Source of the DNA: Lentisphaerae bacterium GWF2_45_14
GTDB taxonomy: Bacteria > Verrucomicrobiota > Lentisphaeria > Victivallales > GWF2-45-14
Direction: 5' to 3'
Assembly: GCA_001804785.1 (NCBI GenBank)
Contig: MHBG01000010.1
Coordinates: 1 to 39,940 of the forward strand
Length of the DNA: 39,940 nt
The position numbers and the translations under genes are program-made. How positions within the stretch are numbered: the stretch's first letter is position 1; each line of letters starts with the position of its first letter. Of the stretch, positions 9,045 to 12,417 are shown in pieces. The notes beneath the pieces are model-generated. The model ran no database searches, had not been told where the DNA came from, and saw nothing but the letters and a program-made list of their open reading frames with translations.

Positions 9045-9140
9045 GCGTCCTCGCCGATTTAAGCTCAGAAAAATCGTGCCAGAAAAAATGGGATTTAAAA
9101 TTTTTATTCATAAGTTATTCAAAATACGTAAATTAGAGAA

Positions 9141-9196
9141 ATACACAATATATTGTTATAATTTTATTTGCCATCTACCATATTGTGTATTATTAT
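9141..9196 (+). promoter_or_regulatory. Putative nrdD promoter (TTGCCA-17-TATTAT) overlapped by two NrdR-box-like half-palindromes (ACACAATAT ... ATATTGTGT) about 30 bp apart. A second TATAAT sits at 9157-9162.
   Basis: Box 1 at 9143-9158 (ACACAATATATTGTTA) matches 14/16 of the NrdR consensus acaCwAtATaTwGtgt. Box 2 at 9173-9188 has a perfect right half (ATATTGTGT) and lies in the spacer between -35 TTGCCA (9168-9173) and -10 TATTAT (9191-9196). ATACACAATAT at 9141-9151 is the exact inverted repeat of 9180-9190. Confidence 0.4.
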
Positions 9197-9297: not shown

Positions 9298-11322
9298 ATG
9301 TCTTCTGCATTGCCCTGTGAAAACGTGAGGAAAAGGGACGGCCGCGTCGTTCCATTTGAACCGGAAAGAATTACAATCGCCGCGGGAAAAGCCTTGAAAG
9401 CTTCCGGCGTCGCAAAATCCGGCGATAAAATAGCCAAGACCATTTGTAAGGACGTCATCGGTTCTTTGGCGGAGATGAATCTCAGCGAGGCTCCGGACAT
9501 AGAGCTTGTCCAGGACCTTGTGGAGCAATCCTTTATCCGAAGGGGCCTGTCAAAGGCCGCCAAACTCTATATTCTCTACAGAGCTCAGCATGAAAAAATA
9601 CGCGAGAGCAAAAAGCTCCTTATGGACGTGCAGGACCTCGTGGCCTCCTACATTGACAAGGAAGATTGGCGCGTCAATGAAAATTCAAACGCCGGCTACT
9701 CATATGCCAGCCTGCTCAATCACGTCAGCGGCGCTGTCATCGCACAGTATACACTTTCAAACATCTATCCCAAAGAAATCGCCGATGCTCATTCAGAGGG
9801 CGATTTTCACCTTCATGACCTTTCATGCGGCATTGTAGGCTACTGCGCCGGCTGGAGCCTCAGGCAACTACTCACCGAGGGATTCAGAGGCAGGGGAGGC
9901 CGCGCCAGCGCCGGACCCGCAAAACATTTCGATACCGCGCTGGGACAGATAGTGAATTTCCTCTCTACTCTCCAGACGGAATGGGCAGGTGCCCAGGCGT
10001 TTAACTCATTCGACACGCTGCTCGCTCCCTTTGTAAGGGAAGACGGCCTCGATTATACGAAGGTCAAACAGAATATCCAGCAGTTCGTCTTCGGACTCAA
10101 TATTGCAAGCCGCTGGGGACAAACTCCGTTTACGAACCTTACATTTGACTGGGTTGTTCCGGAAGACCTTAAAGGCCACCCCATCATCATCGGCGGCAAG
10201 ATGCTCGAAGGCAAATGCTATAAAGACTATCAGAACGAAATGGATATGATTAACCGTGCCTTCCTTGAAGTCATGAGCGAAGGAGACAGGGATGGAAGAA
10301 TATTTACATTCCCAATACCGACATATAATATTACCAAAGACTTCAACTGGGAAAGTGCAAACGCGAAGCTTCTCTTCAAAGTGACCGGCAAATATGGCTT
10401 GCCTTACTTCCAAAACTTTATCAACAGCGACCTCAACCCCGGAGATGTCCGCAGTATGTGCTGCCGCCTCCAGATGGATATCCGCGAACTCAGGAACAAA
10501 ACCGGCGGCCTTTTCGGCGCTGGCGAGCAGACTGGTTCGATCGGCGTGGTAACAATCAATATGCCGCGCCTCGGCTATATATCCAAAAATGAAAATGAAT
10601 TCTTCGCCAGACTCGAAAACCTTATGGTGCTCGCCAAGGATTCAATGGAGATCAAACGCAAGATAGTTCAGCGTCATCTTGATGGCGACCTCCTTCCTTA
10701 TACCAAGACATATCTCGGCACGCTTAAAAACCATTTCAGCACTATCGGTCTTGTCGGACTCAATGAGGCATGTCTCAACTTCCTCGGATGTTCGATATGC
10801 GACAAAGAAGGCTCAGAATTCTCAGTAAGGGTTCTGGACTTTATGCGCGACAGAATAGCCGAGTTCCAGGCCGAAACGGGGCATATCTATAACCTTGAGG
10901 CGACTCCCGCCGAAGGAACAAGCTTCAGACTCGCAAGAATCGACAAAAAGAAGTTTCCCGATATAATCTGTGCCGGAGACACGAATCCCTATTATACGAA
11001 CTCGTCTCAGCTTCCAGTCGGCTATACCGACGACATCTTCGAAGCCCTTGACCTTCAGGAACCTCTCCAGAAAAAATATACCGGAGGTACTGTATTTCAT
11101 GGCTTTATCGGTGAAAGAATACATGACAGCGACCAGGTGGCAGTTTTAGTCAAACGAATTGCTGAAAAATACAGAATACCCTATTTTACCATTACTCCGT
11201 CTTTCAGCATCTGTCCGGTTCATGGATATATTCCTGGCGTGCACCATGAGTGCCCGGTCGATACCAATGAGAACTCGTCAGATGAAGGCAGTACGGATTC
11301 CTTCAAACTTGTAGAGGCTTGA
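9298..11322 (+). CDS. nrdD: Anaerobic ribonucleoside-triphosphate reductase (class III RNR) large polypeptide. It has an N-terminal ATP-cone and ends within the C-terminal Zn-ribbon, before the glycyl-radical motif.
   Basis: ATP-cone (VRKRDGRVVPFEPERI), NrdD core and ITPSFSICPVHGYIPGVHHECP. The expected ...KCG...RVCGY continuation is absent from this ORF, which ends 21 residues later at TGA 11320. Strong GAGGAGG RBS upstream. Confidence 0.9.
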   Translation: MSSALPCENVRKRDGRVVPFEPERITIAAGKALKASGVAKSGDKIAKTICKDVIGSLAEMNLSEAPDIELVQDLVEQSFIRRGLSKAAKLYILYRAQHEKIRESKKLLMDVQDLVASYIDKEDWRVNENSNAGYSYASLLNHVSGAVIAQYTLSNIYPKEIADAHSEGDFHLHDLSCGIVGYCAGWSLRQLLTEGFRGRGGRASAGPAKHFDTALGQIVNFLSTLQTEWAGAQAFNSFDTLLAPFVREDGLDYTKVKQNIQQFVFGLNIASRWGQTPFTNLTFDWVVPEDLKGHPIIIGGKMLEGKCYKDYQNEMDMINRAFLEVMSEGDRDGRIFTFPIPTYNITKDFNWESANAKLLFKVTGKYGLPYFQNFINSDLNPGDVRSMCCRLQMDIRELRNKTGGLFGAGEQTGSIGVVTINMPRLGYISKNENEFFARLENLMVLAKDSMEIKRKIVQRHLDGDLLPYTKTYLGTLKNHFSTIGLVGLNEACLNFLGCSICDKEGSEFSVRVLDFMRDRIAEFQAETGHIYNLEATPAEGTSFRLARIDKKKFPDIICAGDTNPYYTNSSQLPVGYTDDIFEALDLQEPLQKKYTGGTVFHGFIGERIHDSDQVAVLVKRIAEKYRIPYFTITPSFSICPVHGYIPGVHHECPVDTNENSSDEGSTDSFKLVEA

Positions 11323-11442
11323 AAAACATAGAAAAACGATATTCCATGGATTAAGCTGTCAACCACCACCCACCCACCCGGCGGCGGACATCCTTGGAAC
11401 GAAGCAACATATATAAATCAGCATAAAAGGAGAACTATTACG

Positions 11443-11598
11443 ATGTCTAAGTGCGGAAGCAAAACAGAAGTCTACAGCAGGGTCTGCGGATATTTCAGAC
11501 CCGTCGAAAATTGGAACAAAGGCAAAAAGGAAGAATTTAAAGACCGTAAGTCTTATACTCCTGCCGCAAATGAACAAGCCAAGGAAGCCGTGGCCTGA
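11443..11598 (+). CDS. 51-aa NrdD C-terminal fragment: the second half of the Zn-ribbon plus the glycyl-radical motif (RVCGY) and the conserved NWNKGKKEEFKDRK tail, as an independent ORF
   Basis: Translation by hand: MSKCGSKTEVYSRVCGYFRPVENWNKGKKEEFKDRKSYTPAANEQAKEAVA. AAGGAG at 11427-11432 sits 10 nt before the ATG. It is in the same frame as nrdD but separated by the in-frame stops TGA 11320 and TAG 11329. It is not in the ORF track because it is under 60 aa. Confidence 0.6.
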   Translation: MSKCGSKTEVYSRVCGYFRPVENWNKGKKEEFKDRKSYTPAANEQAKEAVA

Positions 11599-11605
11599 GA
11601 ATATT

Positions 11606-11644
11606 CCGGGTTTTAATTCCCCGGTCCTTTAACAAAGACCGGGG
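11606..11644 (+). promoter_or_regulatory. Two mutually exclusive GC-rich hairpins between the nrdD tail ORF and nrdG (CCGGG/CCCGG versus CCCCGGTC/GACCGGGG): possible attenuator or processing site
   Basis: Stem A is 11606-11610 with 11620-11624. Stem B is 11619-11626 with 11637-11644; they share the CCCCGG segment. There is no clear U-tract, so this is not a strong intrinsic terminator. Confidence 0.3.
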
Positions 11645-11700
11645 ATTATTCTGTACACCCGAATAATTGAGGCACAATTTTCATTTGATAGTTTATTATC

Positions 11701-12417
11701 ATGAATATAAGAGGTTTTCAGAGATTTACCCTGGTAGATTTTCCAGGAAAAATGGCGTGTGTAGTATTCGTCGGGGAATGCAACTTCCGCTGCGGCTACT
11801 GCCATAACCCATGTCTTGTTTTTGATCCGGAAAGCCAGCCGTTGATCTCCGAAGATGAGATTGTTTCATTCCTCGAAAGAAGAAAGGGCAAACTCGATGG
11901 TGTTGTCGTAAGCGGCGGCGAACCTTCCCTCAGGAACGGTCTCGAAGAGTTTATGGCAAAGGTCAAGCGGCACGGCTTCCTTGTTAAACTCGACACAAAC
12001 GGCAGCAATCCCGAAAGGGTCATCGCTGCACACCGTGACGGTCTTATAGATGCCCTTGGTATTGATTATAAAGCGCCATCATTGAAATATAATCAGATTG
12101 CCAACTGTTGCACCAAAGACCTCTCCTCAAAAGTGCGAAGACTTATAAAATACGCCGTTGAAAATGATATATTTATTGATGTCAGAACCACCGTCCACAG
12201 GACACTTCTTTCAATGGATGATCTCGCCGAAATGAGAACCGAGCTTGATTCTCTGGGGCTGAAAAACTGGACACTTCAACAGTTTAATCCTGTCGAAGTT
12301 ATTGATGACAAACTCCTTACTAGTAAAACATATTCGGATACCGAGCTTGTGGAAATCTCTTCAAGCCTGCCCAATACCCGAGTAAGAGGTCTTACCGGTG
12401 TTTTTCTCGACACCTAA
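11701..12417 (+). CDS. nrdG: Anaerobic ribonucleoside-triphosphate reductase activating protein (radical SAM)
   Basis: CNFRCGYCHNP radical-SAM CX3CX2C motif near the N-terminus, a GGEP motif, about 238 aa, immediately downstream of nrdD. Confidence 0.85.
   Translation: MNIRGFQRFTLVDFPGKMACVVFVGECNFRCGYCHNPCLVFDPESQPLISEDEIVSFLERRKGKLDGVVVSGGEPSLRNGLEEFMAKVKRHGFLVKLDTNGSNPERVIAAHRDGLIDALGIDYKAPSLKYNQIANCCTKDLSSKVRRLIKYAVENDIFIDVRTTVHRTLLSMDDLAEMRTELDSLGLKNWTLQQFNPVEVIDDKLLTSKTYSDTELVEISSSLPNTRVRGLTGVFLDT

Follow-up and report, generated by a model that had tools for sequence, protein, structure and literature searches.

A split anaerobic ribonucleotide reductase gene in Lentisphaerae bacterium GWF2_45_14 that most likely encodes a two-subunit enzyme with a free-standing glycyl-radical peptide

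The nrdD locus described here most likely encodes a class III ribonucleotide reductase (RNR) of two subunits, in which the glycyl radical resides on a free-standing peptide that acts in trans on the catalytic chain. The support for this is comparative or comes from modelling, and there are no direct data on expression, formation of the complex or of the radical, or exchange of the peptide. The window, by which we mean the whole stretch of 39,940 nt from Lentisphaerae bacterium GWF2_45_14 that was analysed, would give rise to one NrdR-controlled transcript carrying three genes: a tail-less catalytic chain of 674 aa, a separately initiated glycyl-radical peptide of 51 residues and the activase NrdG. 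Taken as a whole, including the inferred docking and exchange of the peptide and its use by phages, a natural two-subunit class III RNR is the best explanation of the locus, and one that we consider probable.

The large nrdD gene (9298..11322, + strand) encodes an ATP-cone and a catalytic barrel, lacks a glycyl-radical domain and ends inside the zinc knuckle. Its product is 100% identical to a database protein of Lentisphaerae bacterium GWF2_45_14, which is a metagenome-assembled genome. Pfam returns, together with the ATP-cone, a match to profile positions 1–528 of 562 of NRDD (PF13597; E = 2e-173), and NCBIfam returns NF006126 with 1018 bits against a cut-off of 548 (positions 3–648 of 684). 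With the finger-loop SMCCRL at residues 386–391, the NRDD catalytic domain expected of a class III RNR is present. The RVxGY glycine motif, which should lie on the same polypeptide, is missing from the 674-aa chain and is found instead on a separate 51-aa ORF; a reciprocal database search likewise found the motif in none of the 120 closest large-chain clusters. The large ORF ends ...SICPVHGYIPGVHHECP-VDTNENSSDEGSTDSFKLVEA*, its TGA stop at 11320–11322 being followed by a second in-frame stop, TAG, at 11329–11331. Alignment to the NrdD of T. maritima, where the zinc motif is CxxxH...CxxC (PMC4493059), places the knuckle codons retained on the large chain, Cys639-x-x-His642 ... Cys652-Pro653, at 11212..11256 (+). 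What remains is an acidic stub of 21 residues plus the TGA (11257..11322, +), with Asp655 at the place of the lost fourth Cys. Of 120 close large chains, 109 have E or D at this +3 position. The stub itself is weakly conserved, measuring 3–21 aa in relatives (58 junction loci) and reaching 36 aa in database clusters, and as judged from these alignments it is merely the divergent C-terminus of the large chain.

The tail gene (11443..11598, +) encodes the 51-aa sequence MSKCGSKTEVYSRVCGYFRPVENWNKGKKEEFKDRKSYTPAANEQAKEAVA, in which Cys4 corresponds to the fourth Cys of the ancestral knuckle and the radical glycine, Gly16 (codon 11488–11490), lies in RVCGY, followed by a NWNKGKKEEFKDRK helix. Its Pfam match covers NRDD positions 526–562 of 562 (E = 1.9e-12), the profile being divided between the two ORFs in a clean break. 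A Shine–Dalgarno (SD) motif, AAGGAG, can be read off the sequence at 11427..11432 (+), 10 nt upstream of the ATG at 11443. The first-pass annotation had described nrdD as broken inside its second Cys pair, with ...HHECP on one side and KCG...RVCGY... on the other, and the two complementary Pfam matches bear this out; the coordinates that it gave for the split gene, stops, SD, ATG and tail ORF all agree with the sequence. The locus shares with the one-piece NrdDs of T4, E. coli, T. maritima and P. copri the ATP-cone, barrel, finger-loop cysteines, zinc knuckle, RVxGY loop and adjacent NrdG, but differs from them in that the break in the chain separates the two Cys of the second knuckle and the large chain has Asp or Glu at the place of the fourth Cys.

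Between the Cys-Pro codons of the large chain (11251–11256) and the Lys codon of the tail (11449–11451) lies a block of 192 nt (11257..11448), of which 120 nt (11323..11442, +) form a non-coding spacer. No ORF was found within the spacer, Rfam gave nothing relevant at E ≤ 10, and neither a promoter nor a terminator was predicted on its + strand. Its folding energy shows no excess over shuffled sequence (z = +1.2), and a search around it for the target-site duplication or inverted repeats of an inserted element gave only short, chance-level repeats. The spacer does contain a clade-specific hairpin (~11342–11399) with a C-rich CCACCC loop, the motif occurring three times at 11366–11379. A part for this hairpin in the mechanism was considered and discarded, as it is limited to a subset of PVC-type spacers and is missing from Desulfuromonadales, prophage and viral tails.

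Upstream of nrdD, at 9134..9196 (+), two palindromes, ACACAATATATTGT (~9143–9156) and ACCATATTGTGT (~9178–9189), both read directly off the sequence, overlap two good sigma-70-like promoters, TAGAGA-17-TATAAT and TTGCCA-17-TATTAT. We take the palindromes to be putative NrdR boxes from their likeness to the consensus, with no model behind the assignment. Downstream, a 12-bp inverted repeat separates the tail gene from nrdG (11618..11645, +), where no terminator was called. The nrdG gene (11701..12417, +) encodes a radical-SAM activase of 238 aa and of the NrdG2 type, with Pfam matches to Radical_SAM and Fer4_12 and 169 bits to NCBIfam TIGR02495 against a cut-off of 131, and so supplies the adjacent activase expected of a class III RNR. 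The earlier suggestion that the locus has a dedicated promoter/operator is borne out by the sequence upstream.

The arrangement is not peculiar to the window. The order large chain, tail, nrdG was found in 58 species-level genomes from Victivallales/Lentisphaeria, Thermoguttaceae, Verrucomicrobia, Kiritimatiellota and Desulfuromonadales, including the cultured isolates Victivallis vadensis DSM 14823, Malonomonas rubra DSM 5091 and Geothermobacter hydrogeniphilus, with large chains that are only 53–84% identical to that of the window. All 58 split loci have an ATG start and an SD-like motif in front of the tail, which answers favourably the proposal that relatives be searched for an independently initiated tail ORF. 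The spacer length in these loci ranges from 18 to 254 nt and, with the large chain as reference, 23 of the tails are in frame 0, 12 in +1 and 23 in +2. The order is kept in 56 of 60 chromosomal loci, and is permuted in the phage locus L113 to tail, nrdG, large chain. The 120 best tail homologues are without exception stand-alone proteins of 42–87 aa that start at or contain M-x-K-C-G, and all of them keep the N-terminal Cys. The dN/dS values of 0.075 for PVC-type tails and 0.020 for those of Desulfuromonadales indicate that the chromosomal tails are under strong purifying selection. Further loci break just past the zinc knuckle (L168, L169, L170, L251 and L254), each with a downstream tail of 44–67 aa that in L168, L170 and L251 is itself followed by nrdG. 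Since different lineages split nrdD at different points, the fission must be recurrent. At the level of sequence comparison, the two-gene arrangement is therefore shown to be ancient and widespread, to be under selection and not to depend on reading frame. In a diverse set of 159 large chains, 91 are tail-less; many tail-less relatives carry inteins elsewhere in the protein. A candidate group I intron after a truncated tail ORF in L252 was dropped for want of an Rfam match.

These comparisons bear directly on whether the break is real and whether it is ever mended. The window comes from a metagenome-assembled genome, and recent pseudogenisation or an assembly or sequencing artefact was a natural suspicion; it is refuted by conservation, the identical arrangement being present on independent contigs, the split recurring in 58 species including isolates, and both pieces being under strong selection. 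The other suspicion, that the pieces are rejoined during or after expression by an intron, an intein, ribosomal bypass or read-through to give an enzyme of one chain, draws on the known occurrence of group I introns and inteins in nrdD (PMC3653736), on the inteins of the tail-less relatives and on the window's two ORFs being in frame. It too is effectively refuted, if by a shade less completely. The spacer has neither an Rfam match nor excess folding energy, spacers shrink to 18 nt and every frame relation occurs, and the stub (3–21 aa) and the tail leader (2–3 residues) are far below the size of a split-intein half. Programmed bypass of the T4 gene 60 type was ruled out on the gap of 18–254 nt in three registers and the separate SD and ATG of the tail in all 58 loci; in L113, moreover, the tail is upstream of the large chain, and tails also exist as orphans. 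The first-pass annotation, which had listed a pseudogene, an artefact and an RNA-level intervening sequence as alternatives, had also pictured a discrete 192-nt in-frame block placed in the gene and attached meaning to its length being a multiple of three. Neither idea survives: spacer length and frame vary freely among relatives, and the in-frame relation in the window is a coincidence, because spacers of 18–254 nt occur in all three frame relations.

We then considered how the two chains might fit together. In the window, the zinc ligands Cys639, His642 and Cys652 are on the large chain and the fourth Cys is on the tail (Cys4), with Asp655 as a possible stand-in. Loss of the fourth Cys from the large chain with its retention on the tail is seen in the window's clade and in Desulfuromonadales. 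By contrast, the large chains of L113, L168, L170, L251 and L254 have a complete CxxC, and the notion of a universal complementarity between large chain and tail was abandoned, as it fails in these other lineages and one phage, where all four ligands are on the large chain. The earlier proposal of a zinc site built from both chains thus holds up as consistent with the data in the window's clade, where it is not demonstrated, and cannot be extended to split enzymes in general. An AlphaFold model of the two chains fused was uninformative when built from a shallow alignment (C-terminal pLDDT < 50), and a diverse alignment was used instead. The resulting model has a pLDDT of 89.6 overall and 91–95 in the tail core, and gives TM-scores, normalised to the target, of 0.68–0.76 against 8P23, 4COI and 1HK8. 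The pLDDT declines along the stub and falls below 50 for residues 666–674, which suggests that the stub is disordered. Because the model is of a single fused chain, with contiguous homologues in the alignment, it speaks for compatibility and not for assembly.

Tails also occur without any large chain. Orphan tails, without a large chain in the neighbourhood, were found on at least 75 viral contigs, accounting for 75 of the best 80 viral loci, and in prophage contexts, with PHROG matches to terminase, portal, Sak4, SSB, RusA and helicase in the vicinity. They bear the RVCG[Y/F]F signature of split-type tails, each with an SD and an ATG of its own, and their dN/dS values are 0.11–0.20; in no orphan tail observed is the radical glycine or the motif around it missing. 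The first viral scan favoured the split-type signature; in a second scan free of this bias, the short ORFs were still mostly orphans of the M-x-K-C-G type. Isolated phages in GenBank yielded only one-piece NrdDs, the best match, MT835493, being a contiguous NrdD of 802 aa with a glutaredoxin-like extension. From the signature alone, the hosts of the viral contigs being unassigned, we infer that the phage tails may pair with tail-less host enzymes.

Two less favoured readings of the tails accept that the enzyme is in two pieces. Neutral gene fission could have fixed a heteromer after a break at a tolerant surface loop by the zinc knuckle, its two pieces assembling once and for good, in which case the tail has no part in exchange, repair or regulation and the phage tails are remnants or unrelated. 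The break junction is indeed surface-exposed and flexible (PMC4493059), as the low pLDDT at the end of the stub would also suggest, and the overlapping or abutting ORFs of some lineages resemble simple translational coupling. Functional split RNR subunits without a special role exist as well, such as nrdA-a/nrdA-b of Aeh1 (cited in PMC3653736). The chromosomal split could be selectively neutral. However, breaks that recur at several points suggest an advantage, and with so many orphan tails under selection, each having its own translation signals and its glycine, neutral fission is hard to hold unless a lone tail serves a large chain encoded elsewhere; we regard it as unlikely, while not dismissing it. 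Less likely still, and in our opinion improbable, is that the phage and prophage tails are decoys that compete with the host tail for the large chain or NrdG and so control or shut down host dNTP synthesis. Residues for binding would be conserved in a decoy too, and a hydrophobic, lipoprotein-like segment is joined in frame to some of the phage tails (L058, L080, L083 and L107). A decoy is nevertheless difficult to square with the retention of the radical glycine and its flanking motif, or with the many phages that encode a complete nrdD, and phages usually need more dNTPs, not fewer.

Returning to the two-subunit enzyme that we prefer, the peptide would dock in the barrel in the manner of the C-terminal domain of a one-piece NrdD, and in the window's clade its conserved N-terminal Cys would complete the Cys-His-Cys zinc site of the large chain. 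NrdG would put the radical on Gly16 of the free or docked peptide. With less confidence, we infer that, the oxygen-labile part being a separate peptide and cheap to make, a damaged tail could be swapped without remaking the 75-kDa chain, and that phages may supply extra tails, at a cost of ~150 nt of coding sequence, with which the host large chain would keep producing dNTPs during infection. Repair after oxygen exposure and phage boosting of the host dNTP supply are both inferences and have not been shown. The full version of this scheme makes the tail a consumable, exchangeable radical cofactor: O2 would cleave it at Gly16, the fragments would dissociate and a fresh tail would re-arm the still intact large chain, docking in the window's clade via its N-terminal Cys onto a zinc site of three ligands with Asp or Glu as a placeholder, and a tail-only phage auxiliary metabolic gene of 150 nt would hijack the host large chain and NrdG for dNTP production. 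We put this forward tentatively, as somewhat more likely to need revision than to stand as written.

Oxygen destroys all glycyl radical enzymes by cutting the backbone at the radical glycine. To our knowledge, GrcA/YfiD, which serves pyruvate formate-lyase (PFL), has been the one known remedy for 25 years. GrcA/YfiD of E. coli and Y06I of phage T4 are autonomous glycyl radical cofactors for PFL, and according to reviews of 2021 and June 2026 it is unknown whether spare-part proteins exist for glycyl radical enzymes beyond PFL (PMC8683613, PMC13450708). The suggestion in the first-pass annotation of a functional two-piece enzyme analogous to GrcA/YfiD gains strong comparative support from the conservation across phyla, the purifying selection, the permuted phage order and the stand-alone phage tails. 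Like GrcA/YfiD, the tail is a small free-standing protein with a glycyl-radical loop (51 aa, with homologues of 42–87 aa and phage orphans) that would complete a large chain without a working radical domain; a phage-encoded version exists, and activation is presumed to be by the cognate radical-SAM activase. The differences are that the enzyme is a class III RNR and not PFL, that the tail has ~50 aa against 127 aa for GrcA/YfiD and no disordered N-terminal domain, that its gene lies inside the nrdD–nrdG operon, and that in the window's clade it probably provides a zinc ligand. Nor is there, as with GrcA/YfiD, a coexisting full-length enzyme with its own radical domain at the locus. Because the window's large chain lacks a radical domain, the tail is expected to be an obligatory subunit and not a back-up. 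A PFL-type glycine radical domain was looked for in the tail, and at E ≤ 0.01 Pfam gives only PF13597 NRDD and NCBIfam only NrdD models; on these profile matches, the resemblance to GrcA/YfiD is functional and not one of family membership. Pfam, NCBIfam and PHROGs hold no curated model for the stand-alone tail. That phages carry the small peptide gene alone makes the tail a strong candidate to be the first radical module of the spare-part kind known outside PFL. We found no literature on a split NrdD tail, subscription journals being outside the coverage of the search.

Split RNR genes are known from phages, among them nrdA-a/nrdA-b of Aeh1, nrdD genes interrupted by an intron, an intein or a homing endonuclease gene (HEG), and the fragmented nrdD of phiAS4 (PMC3653736). 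The Aeh1 pair is similar in that an RNR catalytic subunit is encoded as two cooperating ORFs and functions without splicing (PMC3653736). These phage splits are otherwise sporadic, lineage-specific and caused by a mobile element in the gap, whereas the gap in the window has none: its spacer shows no ORF, Rfam match or excess structure that would point to an intron, intein or HEG. The NrdD split, unlike them, is conserved across phyla and recurrent at one structural junction, and it isolates exactly the radical domain, as a small piece that also circulates alone in phages.

The cultured hosts Victivallis vadensis and Malonomonas rubra offer a testable system for exchangeable radical domains, and the 51-residue tail a natural substrate on which radical installation by NrdG could be examined. 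Where genome annotation or RNR phylogenies filter by length or label these genes as truncated, they will give a wrong picture of anaerobic dNTP synthesis in Lentisphaerota, Planctomycetota, Desulfuromonadales and many uncultured groups. Among phage auxiliary metabolic genes, the orphan tails may form a new class of very small size, and at least four genomes carry a split operon together with an additional orphan tail.

The nrdD gene of the window is split as the first-pass annotation described it, and every coordinate given there matches the sequence. The large chain (674 aa, 9298..11322, + strand) ends ...ICPVHGYIPGVHHECP, followed by an acidic stub of 21 residues and a TGA. Beyond a non-coding spacer of 120 nt, which carries AAGGAG at 11427-11432, 10 nt 5' of the ATG at 11443, a 51-aa tail ORF on the same strand begins MSKCGSKTEVYSRVCGYFRPVENWNKGKKEEFKDRK... 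In the Pfam NRDD profile (562 positions) the large ORF covers positions 1-528 and the small ORF 526-562, so that no part is missing and none is duplicated. The activase gene nrdG starts at 11701, 3' of the tail, and scores 169 bits against the NCBIfam NrdG2 cut-off of 131. Since neither a promoter nor a terminator is predicted on the + strand of the spacer, the simplest reading is that nrdD, the tail and nrdG share a single transcript. The dedicated promoter/operator proposed for nrdD was also recovered, as two promoter-like sites (9134-9196) overlapped by two NrdR-box-like palindromes ∼33 bp apart (9143-9189).

A gene in two pieces could reflect decay or an artefact. The window large chain matches a protein of Lentisphaerae bacterium GWF2_45_14 at 100% identity, and independent contigs with an identical tail show the same split. 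Searching with the 51-aa tail gave 440 matches; the best 120 of these, which were inspected, are all proteins of 42-87 aa with an M-(A/S)-K-C-G... start, at the N-terminus or at an internal Met. The converse search, with the large chain as query, gave 120 clusters (76-100% identity, 654-717 aa), and the glycine motif is missing from all of them. A scan with one genome per species gave 80 loci, and at 58 of these the large-chain gene is followed by a distinct tail gene. These belong to Victivallales/Lentisphaeria (including the isolate Victivallis vadensis DSM 14823), Thermoguttaceae, Verrucomicrobia and Kiritimatiellota, and to the Desulfuromonadales (including Malonomonas rubra DSM 5091 and Geothermobacter hydrogeniphilus), whose large chains are only ∼54% identical to that of the window. 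Only two of the 80 loci, from one Paceibacterota and one WOR-3 genome, have a contiguous nrdD, reading ...C(P/T)(K/A)CG... uninterrupted across the break point. At 56 of 60 chromosomal loci nrdG lies just 3' of the tail. Across the 30 core codons, PVC-type chromosomal tails have a median dN/dS of 0.075 and those of Desulfuromonadales one of 0.020; synonymous sites are close to saturation. Decay and artefact are ruled out by the split at 58 of 80 loci and by the stand-alone tails among the best 120 of 440 matches.

The two pieces might still be rejoined, and an inserted 192-nt in-frame block or an RNA-level intervening sequence had been suggested. Across the 58 split loci, the spacer ranges from 18 to 254 nt (median 65). 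Relative to the large chain, the tail is in frame 0 at 23 loci, in +1 at 12 and in +2 at 23, and every tail has an ATG start with an SD-like motif upstream. With variable spacers and all three frames in use, the in-frame distance in the window is a coincidence and not an inserted element. The window spacer had no match in an Rfam search and folded no better than shuffled sequence. In the viral locus L113, moreover, the tail (52 aa) comes first, then nrdG, and last the large chain (ending ...CPNCV before the stop); with the tail upstream, neither read-through, bypass nor cis-splicing can join them. For a split intein, the stub and the two-residue leader of the tail are far too short. Rejoining models, like pseudogene and artefact, are thus effectively excluded.

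The break point falls within the zinc site, in its second knuckle. The corresponding site of Thermotoga maritima NrdD (CxxxH...CxxC) is on the barrel surface and forms part of a C-terminal domain whose movement is needed before NrdG can get at the buried glycine (PMC4493059). When large chain and tail were predicted as one fused chain, using a diverse alignment, the model (mean pLDDT 89.6, pTM 0.84) agreed with every solved NrdD. Its tail core (residues 681-710) had pLDDT 91-95, and the stub was of low confidence, with block means of 74 (residues 651-660) and 50 (661-670) and values below 50 for the last nine residues (666-674). According to this prediction both pieces fit the canonical fold and the stub behaves as a floppy end; it is no evidence of assembly. 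In the window's clade the fourth-Cys position of the large chain is Glu or Asp in 109 of 120 cases and the N-terminal Cys is kept in 120 of 120 tails, which fits a zinc site to which the tail would contribute the last ligand, the acidic residue perhaps holding its place. Desulfuromonadales large chains usually have a His one residue before that position. The proposal of a zinc site shared between the chains fits the window's clade but is not universal, the CxxC being retained on the large chain in phage L113 and several other lineages.

Tails also occur alone. At about 19 of the 80 bacterial loci there is a tail but neither nrdG nor, within 3.5 kb, a large chain. Judged by PHROG matches, the contexts at L030 (terminase large subunit, portal), L054 (Sak4-like protein, SSB, ERCC4 nuclease, ExoV/Dda helicase) and L076 (in the order Sak4, tail, SSB, RusA) are prophages, and in at least four genomes (UBA5247, CP091727, SUWI01, JAZRTH01) an orphan tail occurs alongside a split operon. 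On IMG/VR viral contigs, tail relatives were found on 193 stretches. The best 80 of these comprise 75 tail ORFs that stand alone, most of them with an ATG and an SD-like sequence of their own, and only five full-length NrdDs. No large chain adjoins any of the 75; L113 alone has one ∼900 nt downstream, past nrdG. Orphan tails keep the radical glycine and, judging from dN/dS (0.20 viral, 0.11 prophage), are under purifying selection. All 72 viral and 19 prophage tail cores compared are closer to split-host tails than to any of 71 contiguous C-termini, sharing with the former RVCG(Y/F)F as against RV(V/T)GY(Y/L) in contiguous enzymes. As this first viral scan was biased by its own search patterns, a second used an alignment of contiguous-type C-termini: 62 of 80 loci were ordinary one-piece NrdDs and 14 were short ORFs, mostly again of M-x-K-C-G type. 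A new mini-ORF type, with zinc knuckle and glycine loop together, also appeared; in L217, L222 and L240 it is a stand-alone ORF of 63-84 aa (...CGKDMPAVCPICGK..EVYSRVVGYLRP...), the gene break lying upstream of the knuckle. The phage-like contigs L166 and L167 carry tail-less large chains ending ...CPNHV and ...CPKC, and neither strand has a tail gene within 2.5 kb, so some mobile elements may carry the large piece alone.

The same split recurs at other break points. A large-chain search of 50%-identity representatives gave 150 diverse relatives (42-62% identity), many with inteins, of which about half stop no more than ∼75 residues past the zinc knuckle without a glycine motif. With loci-derived chains added, 91 of 159 are tail-less, ending as CP(L/V/Y)(E/D)..., CPHH...AA, CPxCDxE..., CPYPHTEE..YG, CPxC(K/L)xEQ... 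or with a stop directly past CxxC. Genomic context for endings other than the window's comes from sampled loci only. L168 (CPKCD...) has a 55-aa tail starting 2 nt past the large-chain gene, with nrdR directly upstream of the operon and nrdG after the tail; L169 (CPYPH...) a 60-aa tail on a contig that stops before any nrdG; L170 (CPLCDEE...) a 67-aa tail without the N-terminal Cys, overlapping by 4 nt and followed by nrdG; L251 (CPMCKN, then stop) a 44-aa tail, with thioredoxin upstream and nrdG then a dUTPase-family gene downstream; and L254 (CPRCKDEKL...) an overlapping 63-aa tail with no downstream nrdG called. On a rough NJ tree, Fitch parsimony requires ∼26 tail-state changes, a figure inflated by tree error; together with the differing break points, this argues for several putative independent fissions, or fissions and fusions, and not a single event.

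The closest functional analogues of the tail are GrcA/YfiD and T4 Y06I, autonomous glycyl radical cofactors for pyruvate formate-lyase (PFL). By sequence (Pfam, NCBIfam) the tail is no member of that family, and it is an obligatory subunit of the split enzyme, whereas GrcA is a back-up. Split phage RNR genes, by contrast, are sporadic and due to introns, inteins or homing endonucleases (PMC3653736). According to a 2026 review (PMC13450708), no spare-part protein is known for a glycyl radical enzyme other than PFL; the 2021 rescue paper (PMC8683613) agrees. Our full-text searches found no split NrdD tail, although subscription-only papers lay outside their scope and an earlier mention is possible; Pfam, NCBIfam and PHROG hold no model for a stand-alone one. 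The finding extends past the window, to a class III RNR made in two pieces, widespread and recurrent, whose radical peptide is mobile.

Comparison across the 58 split loci and the orphan tails shows a two-gene enzyme whose radical domain is translated separately and need not be encoded next to the large chain, and so supports the functional two-piece enzyme first inferred from the window. We infer that the peptide would dock as the usual C-terminal domain does and that NrdG would activate it, which is plausible because free GrcA and short peptides are both substrates of the PFL activase (PMC8683613). We infer with less confidence that the benefit would be cheap replacement of an O2-labile part; on exchange or repair there are no data, and a neutral fission leading to a fixed heteromer is a rival explanation of the same split. 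Phages would, equally tentatively and again without data, supply tails that keep the host NrdD working; alternatively, phage tails may be decoys.

Several further features of these loci were seen. In L254 (3850-4144) the large-chain end (KDEKLHEIDKKIEKLQKELEVEDEQE) and the start of the overlapping tail (NKEELKKELNDLRALRQEIL) form heptad-like charged helices, which may be a coiled-coil 'zipper' holding both pieces together in that lineage. In L252 (5710-6455, GCA_015485995.1) the large chain lacks a tail and contains an intein; thyX comes immediately after it, and then a 35-aa ORF stopping exactly at the radical glycine (...AEVYSRVVG), downstream of which neither a tail remainder nor an Rfam intron match was found. 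Many of the large-chain relatives P0241-P0390 are 800-1900 aa long, match in 2-5 separate stretches and have intein/LAGLIDADG Pfam matches; inteins are very common in this NrdD subfamily, alongside the tail split. In L058 (1601-2158), L080 (3492-3959) and viral L083, L107 and L132, the tail ORF lacks its own stop, and its frame stays open through a hydrophobic segment that has a lipobox (LSGC or LTGC). Either tail and lipoprotein are fused there, or a lipoprotein gene lies inside the tail ORF in the same frame. L014 (3501-4026, Lentisphaeria MAG chromosome CP091727) has three tandem tail genes 206 nt apart, each with an SD and differing by 1-2 synonymous changes, and its large chain has frameshifts typical of long-read errors; the triplet is either a recent triplication raising tail dosage or a long-read assembly artefact.

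In one sub-clade, comprising the window (11300-11319, 11584-11595) and L003, L004, L011-L013, L031, L035 and L059, the C-terminus of the stub is (F/L)K(V/I)(V/I)x(A/G) and that of its cognate tail (E/K)(A/K)VA; the two motifs seem to co-occur, although this is confounded by phylogeny and without statistics. Shortly after the large-chain stop, the window spacer has a hairpin (11342-11399) with a CCACCC/CCCACCC apical loop (11362-11379), also present in L163, L003, L004, L011, L012, L024, L026 and L059, where the stem sequence varies and the loop motif is kept. Its 47-nt block is ∼94% identical to the closest relative, while neighbouring stub codons have diverged; no U-tract follows it, and it has no Rfam match. 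The CCACCC motif is enriched in PVC-type spacers (9/35 versus ∼7% expected, P ∼7.5e-4) and was not found with Desulfuromonadales, prophage or viral tails. The hairpin may serve, in this clade alone, as a regulatory or processing signal that fixes how much tail is made relative to large chain.
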